Assembly: GCA_008080735.1 (NCBI GenBank)
Contig: SHMW01000037.1
Location: forward strand, 1 to 38,188
Direction: 5' to 3'
Length of the DNA: 38,188 nt
DNA from: Promethearchaeota archaeon
Lineage (GTDB): Archaea; Asgardarchaeota; Lokiarchaeia; Sigyniarchaeales; SOKP01
The notes under the pieces are model-generated. The model was not told where the DNA came from. It searched no databases and worked only from the letters and a program-made list of their open reading frames with translations. Below, piece by piece: positions 30,537 through 38,178 of this stretch. Numbering within the stretch: position 1 is the stretch's first letter; each line of letters starts with the position of its first letter. A program made the position numbers and the translations under genes.

Positions 30537-31256
30537 TTAATCCAGGTTCTTTGCAATTCCATAATAGATGAGATATAACCAAAATGGTGTTAGTAGAGAA
30601 TAGATGCTTGTGATTAATCTCAAGAGATAATTGTCAAGAAAATTTGAGAGAAAAATCAAAAATAAGAGAGGGGAAAAGCAAAAGATTCCAACATAAAACA
30701 GAAAATAACGCCTTTTTAATATTCTATATTTCATCATTGAAAATACTTTATATGAGACCGCCAAGATCGGCAATATAGCACAGCCACCCACCAAAATGAT
30801 AATGAAAAGGAAAAACCATAGACTCCATACAGGATAACCATACCTTGAGATATGAATTGCATCTGTGAAATATCCTATAGTTAACCCAATTGCTAATAAT
30901 ATCGCATAAAGTAGGAAAAATAGCCTTTTTTTAAATTGGTCTTCAATAAAATTTGGTCGAATTAAGAAGAGATTCATCGCAAGTAGGAATCTAAAAGCAT
31001 AATATGTAAAAAAACTCGCTATTAGATGCATTATTATGATAACTTCCTTATTTTTAACGAATAAAAACACAATACTATGAATAATATTTATAATTAAACC
31101 TATTAGCGTTAATATCAAAAAGCTCATCAGATAAACTTTTAATCTTGTCGAGCTTCTCTTACGAATCTTATTTAAAAGTAATATAAACCCAAATACTATG
31201 ATGGATTCCCCAATAAAAATAAATAAAATTCGTTCGATAGGTAAGTTCGTTATTAT
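30537..31256 (-). CDS. Stand-alone 7-TM membrane protein, paralog 1 (N-terminus extends beyond the ORF-track call; ATA start inferred)
   Basis: Frame stays open 43 codons upstream of ATG 31127 (IITNLPIERILFIFIGESIIVFGFILLLNKIRKRSSTRLKVYL) and aligns with TM1 of the two paralogs; shares the GYPVWS, RRY and IYYG motifs. Confidence 0.75.
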   Translation of the reverse strand: MITNLPIERILFIFIGESIIVFGFILLLNKIRKRSSTRLKVYLMSFLILTLIGLIINIIHSIVFLFVKNKEVIIIMHLIASFFTYYAFRFLLAMNLFLIRPNFIEDQFKKRLFFLLYAILLAIGLTIGYFTDAIHISRYGYPVWSLWFFLFIIILVGGCAILPILAVSYKVFSMMKYRILKRRYFLFYVGIFCFSPLLFLIFLSNFLDNYLLRLITSIYSLLTPFWLYLIYYGIAKNLD

Positions 31257-31386: not shown

Positions 31387-31737
31387 CTAATTAGCTATTC
31401 GGATATGGGAGTTTGGGGTTAAAATCAGATACTTATCCCCTATACGTCCTAACGAACCTCCATTCCTCCTTAAAAACTGTTTTAACTCATCAATCGCACG
31501 TTTAAGTTCTAATACCGGAACTTTTCCACTCTCTAAAATCTTATTTGCATTTATTATCAACACCCGTCTATTCATCAGTTGCTTTTTGATATCTTCTATT
31601 TGGTCTAAATTCGAGAAATCATATTTCTTAATAAGGAAATCTTGAATTACCGAACCAAAATCCTTTGTAAAGCCTAATGTTTCTTTCGGAGATTCTGCCA
31701 ATTCATCATCATCTTTTTTTCCGAATATGCTAACCAT
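31387..31737 (-). CDS. sepF: Cell division protein SepF (archaeal type)
   Basis: DIKKQLMNRRVLIIN...LKRAIDELK...GGSLGRIGDKYLILTP, the conserved SepF C-terminal motif. Confidence 0.85.
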   Translation of the reverse strand: MVSIFGKKDDDELAESPKETLGFTKDFGSVIQDFLIKKYDFSNLDQIEDIKKQLMNRRVLIINANKILESGKVPVLELKRAIDELKQFLRRNGGSLGRIGDKYLILTPNSHIRIAN

Positions 31738-32217: not shown

Positions 32218-32922
32218 ATGACTACAGAAACAAAAATCGATGGATTTAAAAGTTTAATGTATAGCAGTCCTCTCTTCTATAACTTCATGACACAAAAACT
32301 GCATGATTATGAGAAGAAATACAGAATCTTAGCAAGAATGGTGTGCTCAGATGATGAAACCAAGATTTTAGACCTTCCTTGTGGCACGGGTAATTTAGCG
32401 CGTTTCTTGAAACCTCATATTTCATACGAAGGATGGGACTTAAACCAAATGTTTCTTGAAAAAATTAAGAAGGATTGGAAAAAAGGGGTATGCAAACCAA
32501 AGAATATTATTTTAAAGCAAAAAGACATATTTGAGTACCAAGATTATCCTGATGTAGATTGTGTGCTTTTGTGTGATATCTTGCATCATATATCTCCGAG
32601 ACATGAAGAATTAGTGGAGAAAGTTAAAATTTGCACGAATAAGGTAGTTATATGCGAACCTATTAGTATTAAACCTGAAAATATGAATGGAAATGGCCTT
32701 CTAGGTCGTCTAATAATGGTAATAGGGCGATATCTCCCAGAATCACTTATTAAAACAATAGATTTTCTTTTTGGTGATAATGATGGAATTAATAGCTATG
32801 CGACCAGATCTAAATGGGCACATACCGATGATGCTCTAAAGCTCTTCTATAGGAAGATTGGAATCGAAGAAAAGCAGATTTTTAAGCTCGGAGATGAATT
32901 GATTGGAATTTGGAAAAAATAA
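32218..32922 (+). CDS. Class I SAM-dependent methyltransferase
   Basis: ILDLPCGTG motif I, GWD, DIF, DCVLLCDILHH, ICEP. Confidence 0.88.
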   Translation: MTTETKIDGFKSLMYSSPLFYNFMTQKLHDYEKKYRILARMVCSDDETKILDLPCGTGNLARFLKPHISYEGWDLNQMFLEKIKKDWKKGVCKPKNIILKQKDIFEYQDYPDVDCVLLCDILHHISPRHEELVEKVKICTNKVVICEPISIKPENMNGNGLLGRLIMVIGRYLPESLIKTIDFLFGDNDGINSYATRSKWAHTDDALKLFYRKIGIEEKQIFKLGDELIGIWKK

Positions 32923-33424
32923 CCTCCCTAGCTCAGAAATTAGGAATATTGATAAATCACTATTTAATTAAGAACACGATAAATTTTTTTCACTTTATTT
33001 AATGAGATAAAACTAATAATTAAATCTCATATTATGATGATATATCTACGATCATAATTGTGATATTTTTGATTCAAAAAAAATATTGAAATCCTTTACA
33101 GTAGTGTAATATTACAATAGAATAGTATCGTTTTTTTTTAATTTTTAGTATTTTGAGATATTCAAACACTTAATTTCACATTTCTCCTAAGAAAAAAACG
33201 AAGAGTTATATATTTGATTTATTTTATTAAATATAAGAAGGACTTTACTTAAAAAAAAGGATAATTGATTTTCTAATGGATATTTATTGGTGAATGTCAT
33301 ACCAATTTCATGATTAACGATACTAATCAATTATAAAGTAAGGTTCTTTCGATAACAATTTGAAATGTTTTGAAAATTAGGATCAAAATATATATAAAAT
33401 ATCGTTTTAGAGATTGATATTAAA

Positions 33425-34138
33425 ATGTTTATCACCACAGAGAGAGTTGTTTTAACTTTTATTGTACAAGCAATATTATCATTAGTATTTGGATATATTG
33501 CACAGAACATTTTAAGGAGAAAAAAGAATCAACTTAACAAGTACTTCGCTCTTTTTTTTATCTTTCTAACTGTTGGAAATGTAATTAACATAATATATGT
33601 ACTGATATTTGCATATAGTGGCCTAGGTAATATTGTAGTTATTTTGCATCTAATTACAAATTTTTTCAATTTTTTTGGTTTAGGTTTTCTTTATGTGGTA
33701 AATCAAATTATATTAAAATCAGCAATGGTTTTTTCAAAAAAAGATATAATGAATTACCTAATAGGATATGGGTTGATCCTAATTGTGGGTTCCATAATAA
33801 TACAACTATTTGACGGTGTCTCAATGAGTTCTTCTGGATATCCTGTTTGGAGCATATATTACTTCATATTCATTTTAGGTATTACCGTTATCATTGCATT
33901 AATCCCAATTATTATCAGCTCATTCCGAATATATCAACAGTTAGAAGGAAAAGAAATTAAACGGCGCTATCTTTCCTTTTTTGCTGGAATCCTTGGTTTA
34001 ATACCTTTACTCATTACAATATTCATATCTAATTACTTAAACATAGCAAATATGCGAACGATAGTTAGCTTTGTATCTGTTTCAATGATTCTTTGGGTTC
34101 TTTTAATCTATTATGGACTAAGAAGAAGAACAAAATAA
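33425..34138 (+). CDS. Stand-alone 7-TM membrane protein, paralog 2
   Basis: Seven hydrophobic segments, basic loops (RRKK, KRRY, RRRTK), no cytoplasmic output domain. Confidence 0.85.
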   Translation: MFITTERVVLTFIVQAILSLVFGYIAQNILRRKKNQLNKYFALFFIFLTVGNVINIIYVLIFAYSGLGNIVVILHLITNFFNFFGLGFLYVVNQIILKSAMVFSKKDIMNYLIGYGLILIVGSIIIQLFDGVSMSSSGYPVWSIYYFIFILGITVIIALIPIIISSFRIYQQLEGKEIKRRYLSFFAGILGLIPLLITIFISNYLNIANMRTIVSFVSVSMILWVLLIYYGLRRRTK

Positions 34139-34200
34139 ATTATTTCTAATTTTTTTTAATTTCAAAATATTCAATAAAAAGGAAAATAGGGGTCAAGCAA

Positions 34201-35295
34201 ATGCAGAAACAAGAAAGTATAGAATATTTTTATATCTATGAGGGGGAAAACGAAAAATATGGTCTTAGATATGCGATTCCTGAAGATGCTGAGAAAATAT
34301 CAAGGCTTTATGTGCAGGAATATGATTATAATTACATAAATCCAAAGGTGTATGATCCAGGCGAATTGCAAGAAATTATTTCTGAAAAAAAAAACATTTG
34401 GATTGTAGGAGAAAATCTGAAAAACCAACAGATATTTGCAACAAGTCTGATGGAACTAAAAGAGAATTATGCCTTCTCTAGTAAAACTATAATAGATAAG
34501 GATTATCGTGGTTTAGGTTTAGGGTCTCGATTTGGCTTTAGGAGTGTGAATCATCTTAATGAATCGCACATATTTGATGATAGAATTAAAATCGACTCTG
34601 ATGTAAGAGCTGTTCAAATTGAAGCTCAAAAATTAACGGAAAGAGCTGGAGGGATACCATATGGATTTATTCCATTCTATAATAATTTTGGAGATAAGAG
34701 GAAATTAAACACGGATTATTATAAACCTTATCCCGTCCAAAATGAGGAAAGTGCATTCCTTTATTTTGTGCCTTTGACAAATCTTATTGAAAATAGAGTT
34801 AATAGAGTTTTTCTATTAGACGATGAATTGATATCACCACTATATAATCTTATAAAGAATTCAAGACGGATAATTAAGGTTTTAATGAAAAAAGATGATA
34901 TTTCCCTACTTAAGAAAAATACGACACCTGGTTATGTTGAACATAATGACATTTCTGTCTCAATAGATATGTATGGTTCAAAAATTAAACTTGTTGGAGT
35001 TTCAGATATTAGCGTTGTAAACTTTTTGCTCAATAAGTTCAAAGACTATCGAATGCTAATTTGGCATATTCCTACAACTCAAAAAGGAGTGAAATCTATG
35101 CAACAAGCCTTAGAAGAGGGCTTTATCGTATGTGGTTATAATGTAGGAAGTTTTAAACCTCGATATTCTGAAGGTCTTATAGATTCCTTAATTTTTGTAA
35201 AATATCTAAATGATATATCAAAGAATCCACTTGGTGATATCAATTTGACCAGTAAAAACAAACCATTTTATGAGCATGTAATAACCCAACTATAA
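34201..35295 (+). CDS. GNAT-family acyltransferase (N-terminal GNAT + second domain), copy A
   Basis: LRYAIPEDAEKISRLY (GNAT beta1-alpha1), acyl-CoA motif A IIDKDYRGLGLG; second GNAT-like end EEGFIVCGY. Confidence 0.82.
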   Translation: MQKQESIEYFYIYEGENEKYGLRYAIPEDAEKISRLYVQEYDYNYINPKVYDPGELQEIISEKKNIWIVGENLKNQQIFATSLMELKENYAFSSKTIIDKDYRGLGLGSRFGFRSVNHLNESHIFDDRIKIDSDVRAVQIEAQKLTERAGGIPYGFIPFYNNFGDKRKLNTDYYKPYPVQNEESAFLYFVPLTNLIENRVNRVFLLDDELISPLYNLIKNSRRIIKVLMKKDDISLLKKNTTPGYVEHNDISVSIDMYGSKIKLVGVSDISVVNFLLNKFKDYRMLIWHIPTTQKGVKSMQQALEEGFIVCGYNVGSFKPRYSEGLIDSLIFVKYLNDISKNPLGDINLTSKNKPFYEHVITQL

Positions 35296-35314
35296 TTTTT
35301 TCCTCTCTCTAATT

Positions 35315-35770
35315 TTAGAAAAACAGATTTGAGATCTTTTCTTCCGTTGTTTTTGTCGAAGAGCCGATAATTTTATCAATTATTCCCACAAATGCCTCAA
35401 ATTTTGAGGGATCAGAGTATTCTAATCCGCGATATTCTGAAATAAATTTATTTAAAATTTCCTCCAGCTTTTTTATGAAGATATTTTTTTGCTTTTGAGT
35501 AAGGGTTATATTTCTATCTAATACACCATATGCAATTATTTGAGCACCTTCGGTTCTCTTGGTTTTAATTTTACTCTTCTTAAAGAAGATATGATATTTA
35601 TTACTTTCAAAAGATTCTATTGGTTCTATTAGATTTTCAGCAAATTTCATAATACTTGAGATGACCGCACTTTTACAGATAAAATCAACTGTCTTATCAC
35701 CTGTTTTATGATAATTTATACAGATAATAGGTATTCCCTCGACAATAATTCCAAATTCTCTGAGTAACAT
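35315..35770 (-). CDS. Longin-like domain protein
   Basis: beta-beta-alpha-beta-beta-beta-alpha-alpha pattern (FGIIVEGIPII / SAVISSIMKFAE / IESFE / HIFFK / IIAYGVLD / LEEILNKF / FEAFVGIIDKII) typical of Asgard longin-fold proteins. Confidence 0.6.
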   Translation of the reverse strand: MLLREFGIIVEGIPIICINYHKTGDKTVDFICKSAVISSIMKFAENLIEPIESFESNKYHIFFKKSKIKTKRTEGAQIIAYGVLDRNITLTQKQKNIFIKKLEEILNKFISEYRGLEYSDPSKFEAFVGIIDKIIGSSTKTTEEKISNLFF

Positions 35771-36274
35771 ACAGTTTCCATTCCCTCCATATAATAATGT
35801 TGATTTACCTATTACTAGAGACAGATTTCTTATTTAATCTTTTCCGTTAAATTTTCAACTTAGCTATTTAATTGGTCTAATTCTGAAACGATATTCTGAA
35901 TTTATATCTAATATATGAAAATTACCCACTTTTTCATAAACTTATGTAATTTAATAGCCATAAAAGAGGAAAATTAGAAATACTTGGAAATAAAAGAAAT
36001 TACATAGTTAGAAAATAAAACAATAAATATTTAAGATTTTAATTAGTCATAATAATTGCTTGAAATTTGAATATTGGACTACATTTTTGTCCTTTAGATA
36101 TTATTTAGTCATATAAAAAGATTGTATTATGTATATTGGCAAAGAACATTTTTTTTAAAAATAAACTATTAATAGTAAAACTTTCATAATATATTAAAAG
36201 TGAAAATCTTAGAATTTAAAGCTCCAATTGAGATTTAAAACTTTGACTATGACTTAATTAAAAAGGTGTGATAA

Positions 36275-36997
36275 ATGGCAATCGGCATTGAGAGAATCGT
36301 TTTAACCTTTATCGTCCAAACCATATTGATTTTGACATTTGGTTATATAGGAACAAACATTATGAAAAGAAAAAAGACGAAGCTAAACCTTTATTTTAGC
36401 ATGTTTTTCTTTTCTTTAACAATTGGAAATATTATAAATATAATATATGTTCTAATCTACGCATATGGAGGGACTTCTCTAGAACTCGTGGTTGTAATAA
36501 TGCATTTGATTACAAATTTCTTTAATTTCTTTGGATTAGCATTCCTTTTTGTGGTAAACCAAATTATTCTCAAATCAGCAATGGTTTTTACACAAAAGGA
36601 TATTTTACGATATTTTCTGATATATGGAGGCATTTTAATCGTAGGAACAATACTCATTCAGATTTTTGAGGGTGTCACCATGAGTAGTTCAGGGTATCCT
36701 AAATGGAGTATTTACTACTTTTTATTCATACTTCTATCAGTTGTGGGAATTGCTCTTTTCCCTATCTTAAATACATCTTACAAGATTTTTAACCAATTAG
36801 AAGGAGAGGAAATTCGAAGGAGGTATTTATATTTTCTTTTGGGAATTTTTGGGTTAAGCCCATTATTAGTAGTAATAATTTTTTCCAATCTTTTAGATAT
36901 ACCAATATTCCGGACGATAACGAGCATACTGTCAATTTCAATGATCCTATGGGTTATTCTGATCTATTATGGTCTTAGAAGGCAAACTACAAAGTAA
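36275..36997 (+). CDS. Stand-alone 7-TM membrane protein, paralog 3
   Basis: Colinear with 33425..34138 (ER.VLTFIVQ, HLITNFFNFFG, VVNQIILKSAMVF, MSSSGYP.WSIYYF, IYYGLRR); AGGTG SD. Confidence 0.87.
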   Translation: MAIGIERIVLTFIVQTILILTFGYIGTNIMKRKKTKLNLYFSMFFFSLTIGNIINIIYVLIYAYGGTSLELVVVIMHLITNFFNFFGLAFLFVVNQIILKSAMVFTQKDILRYFLIYGGILIVGTILIQIFEGVTMSSSGYPKWSIYYFLFILLSVVGIALFPILNTSYKIFNQLEGEEIRRRYLYFLLGIFGLSPLLVVIIFSNLLDIPIFRTITSILSISMILWVILIYYGLRRQTTK

Positions 36998-37074
36998 ATT
37001 AAAATTTTAATTATAATTTTTTTTCCACTGGAATAGGAATTTTAGCAAATAATTAGGAAATTAGGGAGGATTTT

Positions 37075-38178
37075 ATGCAGAAACAAGAAAGTATAGAATA
37101 TTTTTATTTATACGAGACAAATAATAAAGAGAAATACGGCTTGAGATATGCAATCCCCGAAGATGCTGACAGAATCTCTGAACTTTATATCCAAGAATAC
37201 GGTTATAATTATGTGAACCCTATTATCTATGATCAACATGAATTAGAGGGACATATCGCAGATGAGGAAAATATATGGATCATTGGAGAGAATTTAGAGA
37301 ATGGGGAATTAATCGCGATCAGTTTGATGGAATTGAAGGAGAATTATGCCTTTTCTAGCAAAACCATTATAAGGAAAAGCTATAGGGGTTTAGGTTTAGG
37401 GTCTCGATTTGGCTTTAGGAGTGTGAAAGAGCTTCATGAATCTGGAGCTTTAGATAATCGAATTAAAATCGATTCTGATGTAAGAGGAGTACAAATTACT
37501 GCACAAAGATTATCTGAAAATTCTAGGGGGTTGGCTTACGGGTTTATTCCCTTGTATAATAATTTTGGAGATAAAAGAGATTTGAGTAGCGATTATTATA
37601 ATCCATACCCCACTCAAGATGAAGAAAGCGCATATCTTTATTTTTCACCACTACCACGTCTTTCGAATAATAGGTCAAATGAAGTCTATTTATTAGATAA
37701 TGAGCTAATTACTTTCTTCTATGATTATATGAAAAACATCAAGCGAGTGACAAAAAATATAATGAAACGAGATACAGTTTACTTGACAAAAGTTAAGGAA
37801 ACACCCGAATATTTAGAAAAGGAAGATATTTCAGTGTCTATTGATCTTTACGGTTCAAGAGTAAAACTTTTGGGAGTGACTGATTATAAAGTCGTAGAAT
37901 TCTTGATGGATAAGTTCAAAAATTACAGGATGCTAATTTGGCACATTCCAGCCACCCTAAAAGGTGTCAAATCAATGCAACAAGTATTAGATAACGGATT
38001 TATCGTCTGCGGATATAATCTCGGGGGTTTTAAGCCTCGTTATTCTGATGTATTGGTAGACTCGGTGATTTTTGCTAAGTATCTCAATGAAATGTCAAGA
38101 AATTCTCTAAAGGAAAATATTTCTTGTACCGAGATGAATGAGCCTATACTTAAACACGTATTAAAACAGTTAAAGTAA
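37075..38178 (+). CDS. GNAT-family acyltransferase, copy B
   Basis: Colinear with 34201..35295; motif A IIRKSYRGLGLG; GGAGG SD. Confidence 0.82.
   Translation: MQKQESIEYFYLYETNNKEKYGLRYAIPEDADRISELYIQEYGYNYVNPIIYDQHELEGHIADEENIWIIGENLENGELIAISLMELKENYAFSSKTIIRKSYRGLGLGSRFGFRSVKELHESGALDNRIKIDSDVRGVQITAQRLSENSRGLAYGFIPLYNNFGDKRDLSSDYYNPYPTQDEESAYLYFSPLPRLSNNRSNEVYLLDNELITFFYDYMKNIKRVTKNIMKRDTVYLTKVKETPEYLEKEDISVSIDLYGSRVKLLGVTDYKVVEFLMDKFKNYRMLIWHIPATLKGVKSMQQVLDNGFIVCGYNLGGFKPRYSDVLVDSVIFAKYLNEMSRNSLKENISCTEMNEPILKHVLKQLK

Follow-up and report, generated by a model that had tools for sequence, protein, structure and literature searches.

Two stand-alone seven-transmembrane (7TM) proteins, each followed on the same strand by a GNAT acyltransferase, are encoded at the end of a contig from a Promethearchaeota archaeon, and the question raised by this locus is what a receptor-like protein and its neighbouring enzyme have in common. 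The window, i.e. the whole stretch of DNA analysed here, comprises 38,188 nucleotides (contig SHMW01000037.1 of assembly GCA_008080735.1, positions 1-38,188, + strand), and its source is placed by GTDB in Asgardarchaeota; Lokiarchaeia; Sigyniarchaeales; SOKP01. To our knowledge, Asgard GPCR-shaped proteins have no known ligands or partners, and an enzyme co-inherited with a single clade of receptors gives direct access to a possible ligand. In our analysis the pair is most likely a signal-making enzyme and its sensor (with a probability of roughly 0.4), the GNAT making or acylating a small molecule that the 7TM protein would sense.

The duplicated block

The features considered are the following:
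30537..31250 (-): third 7TM paralog, of the GNAT-linked clade but lacking a GNAT; start codon probably a non-standard ACG
33180..33213 (+): weak operator-like palindrome, then BRE/TATA-like sequence, ahead of 7TM copy A
33425..34138 (+): 7TM copy A, stand-alone, 237 aa; modelled GPCR fold, HisKA_7TM-like
34201..35295 (+): GNAT copy A, two-domain acyltransferase, 364 aa
35315..35770 (-): longin-like 151-aa gene, third gene of the duplicated block; fold assignment weak
36275..36997 (+): 7TM copy B, stand-alone, 240 aa
37019..37036 (+): possible degenerate operator remnant before GNAT copy B, weak (score 5.9)
37075..38178 (+): GNAT copy B, two-domain acyltransferase, 367 aa
Contig C126, 588-1046 (-): longin-like copy B, just beyond the window end

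The initial annotation described two co-oriented copies of a two-gene unit. Both copies are real, with four + strand open reading frames and spacers of 62 nt (copy A) and 77 nt (copy B) between 7TM and GNAT, and the motifs that it quoted are present in both. The duplication also stands, but the block consists of three genes and not two: 7TM, GNAT and, convergent to the latter, the longin-like gene. Contig C126 shares 77 nt with the end of the window, and both trios are contiguous in a sister assembly. The 7TM and GNAT copies are 66-67% identical (62% for the longin-like gene) at a dS of 1.7-2.1, and they have stayed intact while diverging, as was proposed: dN/dS between copies is 0.12 for the 7TM and 0.15 for the GNAT, and all three block genes are under purifying selection (0.12-0.15). 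Searching Pfam, NCBIfam, PADLOC and PDB sequences with the window proteins yielded no significant family, the PADLOC anti-phage defence models matching neither the 7TM, the GNAT nor the longin-like protein, and an Rfam search found nothing.

The 7TM protein

The predicted structure has seven helices (pLDDT 94), with 16 K/R residues on the cytoplasmic side versus one in the outer loops, which bears out the N-out, GPCR-like topology suggested earlier. The best 50 fold matches of the model are GPCRs or GPCR-like proteins (VIA Z 15-19 for the seven-helix N-out bundle) and support the receptor-like character ascribed to it; within the modelled GPCR fold, the sensors of HisKA_7TM type come nearest. 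The searches matched it to no known family of enzymes or transporters, and, unlike in 7TM hydrolases, there is no conserved His set. In both copies, as in every aligned relative, the reading frame stops 7-10 residues past TM7, in agreement with the reported lack of a kinase or cyclase domain; longer, fused forms were sought and none turned up, a weak piece of evidence.

This genome holds nine full-length 7TM paralogs and one fragment, most of them without a GNAT. Loop conservation is 0.71-0.77 on the cytoplasmic side versus 0.23-0.50 outside. The cytoplasmic loops are about equally conserved in GNAT-less and GNAT-linked paralogs, which points to a shared output other than the GNAT, and residues specific to the GNAT-linked clade are largely kept in 7TMs that lost it. 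No genes for heterotrimeric G proteins or arrestins occur in the loci examined. GPCR-like and 7TM clusters in Asgard archaea were reported previously (bioRxiv 10.64898/2026.10.28.762692).

The initial annotation further suggested that the copies diversify into orthogonal channels. This was rejected for the window copies: identity is 0.70 in the outer and 0.66 in the inner half, and the two copies share most of their putative-pocket polar residues as well as the ECL2 loop, so that orthogonal channels are not supported. Between pair types, fixed differences number six in the inner versus one in the outer half of the 7TM, the latter being too variable for a fair count. This inner-half bias (6 vs 1) was counted against the small-molecule reading.

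The acyltransferase

The GNAT domain is N-terminal (about residues 13-199), and its fold was recovered by Foldseek (E 3e-9) and by VIA (Z up to 13.6, over the N-terminal half). Acyl-CoA motif A (R/Q-x-x-G-x-small) is intact here and retained in most members of the clade. The C-terminal half, searched only within the longer query, gave no solved-fold match. The structures nearest to it are generic N-acetyltransferases of proteins and of small molecules, and no match to LuxI, LuxM or FeeM appeared in Pfam, NCBIfam or among the top fold matches. The generic neighbours were likewise counted against the small-molecule reading. Distant relatives in bacteria carry fused cNMP-binding or RsbW-like (HATPase_c_2) domains, which favours a regulated enzyme. 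In sister GNATs of 620-680 aa the fused part is a DUF998 membrane domain. These sister GNATs were considered as GNAT-7TM fusions and rejected, their tail being DUF998 and not the 7TM family; a 276-aa membrane neighbour of these fusions gave an unconvincing alignment to that family (hhalign 19%).

The pair across genomes

Forty-nine genomes from five genera possess the pair. One genus (g11) accounts for 42 of them, which are all of its GNAT-bearing genomes; the 7TM-GNAT adjacency is conserved beyond this genome and is not a one-off. All 23 sampled GNATs that adjoin a 7TM form one clade (SH-aLRT 99), and the pair has a single origin. The 20 sampled GNATs outside this clade have no adjoining 7TM, and such close relatives indicate that the enzyme works without one. 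The single origin was also counted against the small-molecule reading, neighbouring genes sharing a history by linkage alone.

Several gene orders and flanks are found, with gaps of 5-290 nt between the paired genes. Only the 7TM and the GNAT are common to all five genera, the other flanking genes being variable, and the trees of the two proteins agree, a congruence that the initial annotation had named as a check. The pair was separated jointly from the longin-like gene on two occasions: in G025 and G093 the 7TM and GNAT group with this genome and the longin with its own genus (AU p=0.004), and in G157 and G159 the pair moved out of the locus and the longin remained. In G085 two different pair types stand in tandem, each cognate in both trees. 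The genes are co-inherited as cognate pairs, as a synthase and its receptor should be. The 7TM and GNAT have been inherited, moved and duplicated together, yet are separately transcribable.

The longin-like gene adjoins the 7TM in four of the five genera, and in genus g3 it stands beside a 7TM without a GNAT. Its fold assignment is weak (a cluster with 22% Fuz_longin_1 reached an Atlas feature score of 0.89; weak matches to PDB 8yqg at E 0.27 and, in one of 48 proteins, to Pfam Longin at E 0.039), and the locus has no GTPase gene. The partial distance correlation is 0.65 for 7TM-GNAT given the longin, and 0.17 for 7TM-longin given the GNAT. A complex prediction of the 7TM and longin-like proteins with the GNAT as partner scored 0.01 and was counted neither for nor against binding.

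A second system consists of a distant GNAT clade and the separate 7TM clade paired with it; of the best 45 matches, 37 lie within 3.5 kb. Here the 7TM lies within co-oriented enzyme clusters, in shuffled gene orders, together with a second GNAT and often ThiF.

Promoters and the palindromic operator

A separate promoter bearing a palindromic operator precedes the GNAT in most relatives, and in three the 7TM and GNAT genes are convergent. The palindrome occurs upstream of 43 of 48 GNATs versus 3% of shuffles. It was also considered as a terminator of the 7TM gene; this was rejected, since at inverted GNATs it still accompanies the 5' end of the gene. In the window, the palindrome at 33180..33213 has a weak score of 9.5 (in the sister strain, 12) and is not significant alone. 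A wider regulon was sought for the palindrome and none could be defined, and a sigma-70 promoter scan remained at chance level. Co-transcription as the basis of the pair is not supported: with separate GNAT promoters in most relatives it does not explain the linkage. The initial annotation had named separate transcription as a refutation; it refutes an operon and not the pairing, because the pair stays linked in spite of it.

What the pair may do

The initial annotation offered either protein acylation by the GNAT or a signal synthase with its receptor; the context leans towards the second. By motif and models, a cytoplasmic GNAT with an intact acyl-CoA motif stands beside an N-out protein of GPCR fold without an output domain; the two are co-inherited, co-moved and co-duplicated, the GNAT being presumably expressed from its own operator-bearing promoter. 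The enzyme would acylate an amine, an amino acid or a lipid-like acceptor, by which a signal is made or quenched, and the 7TM would bind this signal in a pocket open to the outside. Polar residues found throughout the family would line the pocket, R7 and R211 among them, and an anionic head group would fit such a lining. The output may run through a partner that all members of the 7TM family share, a longin-like protein being plausible, and not through the GNAT; the GNAT-less paralogs would be solo receptors. In favour of this reading we counted the unbroken adjacency within the sampled clade and in g11, the joint departures from the longin, the tandem pair types of G085, the second GNAT-7TM pairing with its ThiF genes and the OxzAB parallel, the palindrome at the GNAT promoter and the equal loop conservation in GNAT-less paralogs. 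A fuller version, in which Lokiarchaeia make an acylated signal with the GNAT and sense it through a stand-alone GPCR-fold receptor with longin-type output, as cell-to-cell signalling with exchangeable pair types, we regard as doubtful.

The closest competitor of the small-molecule reading, itself rather unlikely, is a physically coupled pair in which the 7TM recruits or switches the GNAT, protein acetylation being the output, or an adaptation mark on the Lys-rich cytoplasmic 7TM loops or the longin. The one-way dependence (this GNAT clade always with a 7TM, which can lose its GNAT), the correlation of 0.65 as against 0.17, the conserved cytoplasmic loops, the fusion of GNAT relatives to input or DUF998 domains and the usual fusion of HisKA_7TM-type modules to an output enzyme would all suit such coupling. 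However, one would not usually expect convergent genes or separate promoters for the partners of a stoichiometric complex, the linked-clade residues largely persist without a GNAT, and the second pairing is accompanied by biosynthetic-looking enzymes. We consider it improbable that functional coupling is absent altogether, with one ancestral GNAT insertion beside one of many 7TMs hitchhiking through block duplications and transfers. Although the single origin, the 42 of 49 genomes in one genus, short gaps that favour co-transfer, a window duplication that carried the longin too and the numerous 7TM paralogs would fit this, adjacency outlasted GNAT inversion, relocation and replacement of all other flanks (0 exceptions in the 23 sampled), and a second GNAT clade is paired with a second 7TM clade. 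That the 7TM is a membrane accessory, presenting a lipid-like acceptor to the GNAT or exporting its product, is suggested by the DUF998 fusions and the co-oriented clusters of the second system, but it is very unlikely given the GPCR-like fold matches, Atlas neighbours that are sensor domains of kinases and cyclases, the absent His set and the lack of such an enzyme neighbour in most paralogs.

Should it prove true that the cells make their own acyl signal, or that the receptor is coupled to acylation of proteins, this would show how a GPCR fold can signal with no kinase fused to it, and would bear on the origin of eukaryotic GPCR signalling.

Comparison with known systems

No description of 7TM-GNAT pairing was found in the literature searched, a coverage that left out most subscription journals. 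Compared with Asgard 7TM-longin pairs (for Asgard longins see PMC10933270), the present loci have an acyltransferase in addition, and it follows the 7TM more closely than does the longin. The N-acyltransferase and ThiF of OxzAB, which yield N-acyl amino-acid derivatives (bioRxiv 10.1101/2020.06.11.147165), recall the second-system cluster by gene pairing alone; the window cassette lacks ThiF, and OxzAB lacks a receptor gene. With HisKA_7TM (PF16927) the 7TM protein shares the predicted fold (Atlas TM 0.74-0.79 to the 7TM domains of HisKA_7TM- or GGDEF-bearing proteins), the N-out topology and a beta-hairpin between TM4 and TM5, but it is not fused to a kinase, cyclase or phosphodiesterase; the Pfam cut-off is not reached (best E=0.005, in 3 of 52 relatives), and neither window copy matches. 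The fold is likewise that of eukaryotic GPCRs (natural GPCRs at VIA Z 15-17 over about 213-236 residues, rmsd 3.2-4.1), at only 5-14% identity and with no class A motifs evident. Mycobacterial cNMP-GNAT Pat resembles the distant relatives with cNMP-binding or RsbW-like domains, whereas the GNAT here has no fused input domain, and domain order and family differ.

In Vibrio, the synthase genes of LuxM/LuxN and AinS/AinR lie beside those of their own membrane receptors, and LuxI/LuxR are known both as pairs and as solos. The GNAT matched neither the LuxI nor the LuxM family in the searches run, and the receptor differs in being a stand-alone GPCR-fold 7TM without a kinase or DNA-binding domain. 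Common to these systems and the present one are an acyltransferase gene kept beside a sensor gene, separate or convergent transcription, a palindromic operator at the enzyme promoter, and orphan receptors.

The duplicated block

The four open reading frames, their gaps of 62 and 77 nt and the motifs quoted in the initial annotation are all present in the window. The proposed two-gene unit, however, proved to be a block of three genes, the third being a 151-aa reverse-strand ORF whose product looks faintly longin-like. The relevant features of the window are:

30537-31250, minus strand: third 7TM paralog, GNAT lost, frame intact here and in the sister strain
31387-31737, minus strand: SepF, upstream of the cassette
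32218-32922, plus strand: class I methyltransferase, upstream of the cassette
33425-34138, 34201-35295, plus strand: 7TM A, GNAT A
35315-35770, minus strand: longin-like ORF A
36275-36997, 37075-38178, plus strand: 7TM B, GNAT B

Copies A and B are 66-67% identical (7TM, GNAT), with near-saturated synonymous sites and a dN/dS of 0.12 (7TM) and 0.15 (GNAT), so the duplication is old and neither copy has been lost. The 151-aa ORF 3' of GNAT A has a 62%-identical counterpart (dN/dS 0.12) beyond GNAT B, on a contig (C126) that overlaps the end of the window, and both trios are contiguous in a sister assembly. Close homologs carry Lokiarchaeota or Promethearchaeota labels, and the window DNA is present in marine sediment sequencing runs. 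SepF and the methyltransferase were not found at cassette loci of other genera. GNAT B and longin B are separated by a ~490-nt insert just past the window end (C126, L195:78-590), missing from the sister strain and with 12 further matches in the genome (80-97% identity); it appears to encode the C-terminus of a TnpB-type protein. No standard start codon is present near the 5' end of the third 7TM paralog; this genome and the sister strain both have an ACG 6 nt after a Shine-Dalgarno-like GGTGA.

The 7TM and GNAT proteins

The confident 7TM structure model (pLDDT 94) matches the GPCR fold (Z 15-19). Outside Lokiarchaeia, the predicted structures closest to it are 7TM sensor domains of kinases and cyclases from bacteria and a Dicty_CAR-type receptor; in the family search it falls below the HisKA_7TM cut-off. 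A shared fold proves no function, and the receptor role is putative. GPCR-like proteins (bioRxiv 10.64898/2026.10.28.762692) and longins (PMC10933270) have already been reported in Asgard archaea. The multi-copy 7TM family (matches in 48 of 61 genomes; conserved residues R7, N55, N203 and R211) has nine full-length members in this genome, only two of which adjoin this GNAT. In linked and unlinked paralogs alike, conservation is higher in the cytoplasmic loops than in the outer ones. At the commonest family locus (L039-L060) the flanks, read by eye, are a heterodisulfide-reductase-like gene and a small helix-hairpin-helix-like gene, the latter followed by Sir2-like or cation-exchanger-like genes. 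In genus g3 (L137, L139, L142), 7TMs of the GNAT-linked clade are paired with a longin, without GNAT, and have lost the otherwise conserved polar residues R7, N55 and partly N203; these genomes hold seven longin copies each.

The N-terminal half of the GNAT protein shows the GNAT fold, with motif A retained and no close solved relative among the structure-search matches. Of 161 genomes of the class, 58 encode members of the close subfamily, and distant relatives from bacteria come with RsbW-like or cNMP-binding domains. A sister GNAT of genus g11 (L252:2404-4329, minus strand; L253-L259) ends in a fused DUF998 membrane domain, and its gene is often convergent with that of a 276-aa membrane protein.

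Conservation of the pairing

The adjacency seen in the window recurs well beyond this genome, in 49 genomes of five genera that are kin and not independent cases: the 7TM directly adjoins the GNAT in all 42 GNAT-bearing genomes of g11, and in G017, G011, G065, G157, G159, G160 and this genome. All 23 sampled 7TM-adjacent GNATs fall into a single clade (SH-aLRT 99) that has no unlinked member, and the 20 unlinked GNATs in the tree lie outside it. The congruence of trees expected for such a pairing was likewise recovered, the 7TM tree repeating the GNAT subclades and including also a few GNAT-losing 7TMs, the third window paralog among them. Gene order varies (in genus g2 the GNAT is inverted, facing the 7TM), and no flanking gene besides the two is common to all five genera.

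The 7TM and GNAT hold together more closely than the three genes do. In G025 and G093 these two group with this genome and G017; the longin remains within g11, and a constraint to follow the pair is rejected (AU p=0.004). G157 and G159 keep the longin at the locus where G160 has the trio, with 7TM and GNAT together elsewhere. Both trees recover as a single clade a 12-member g11 subgroup that was chosen after inspecting distances, and in G085 one pair of each type lies in tandem. Since physical linkage contributes throughout, this agreement reflects co-inheritance, not contact.

Regulation

Of the 48 linked GNATs, 43 have a palindrome on their 5' side (consensus T6-CACGTG-A6, in g11 with a BRE/TATA-like stretch after it), vs 3% of shuffles, 5 of 56 7TM genes and none of 45 longins. 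It moves with inverted GNATs and also precedes a few unlinked ones; in most cases, therefore, the GNAT has a regulated promoter to itself. In the window, the spacers are short, the palindrome is absent or degenerate, and 7TM A is preceded by a weak copy; 7TM and GNAT may be co-transcribed there. The best two operator matches in this genome (contig C50:8732 and 8826) lie 5' of a 152-aa gene, away from the cassette.

Proposed function

The likeliest single reading (about 0.4) is that the GNAT, as enzyme, and the 7TM, as receptor, have a small acylated molecule in common. Several observations jointly fit it: the two genes are strictly co-inherited without co-transcription, there are orphan receptors, the enzyme gene carries an operator, GNAT-less paralogs share the cytoplasmic face, and the enzymes of a sister system look biosynthetic. 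Receptor-coupled protein acylation is plausible at lower odds, given the sensor fusions within the GNAT family and the one-way dependence between GNAT and 7TM. Hitchhiking of the two genes without functional coupling is less likely, and a 7TM serving as membrane accessory less likely again. The suggestion that the two window copies are orthogonal channels finds no support, since both keep nearly the same putative pocket. The pairing is real and conserved, and no description was found in the literature searched (most subscription journals were outside coverage); the proposed mechanism is read from its context.

Comparison with known systems

By its context, the pair appears to work like a synthase/receptor pair, and it did not qualify for any named family tested. 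A second pairing was taken up only after being noticed among locus readings: of the 45 best matches of another 7TM subfamily, 37 have a distant ~408-aa GNAT no more than 3.5 kb away (a cross-count of two match lists). Another GNAT-domain protein is encoded at these loci, frequently together with a ThiF enzyme, and the genes come in many different orders. A sister-GNAT cluster is also present in this genome (L210, contig C43:1297-5636), with a 405-aa GNAT, a 280-aa membrane protein, a 389-aa protein and a ThiF-like gene. In OxzAB, an acyltransferase and a ThiF protein produce N-acyl amino-acid derivatives (bioRxiv 10.1101/2020.06.11.147165); the second-pairing loci may resemble it in combining acyltransferase and ThiF, a likeness of analogy and not a test of homology.
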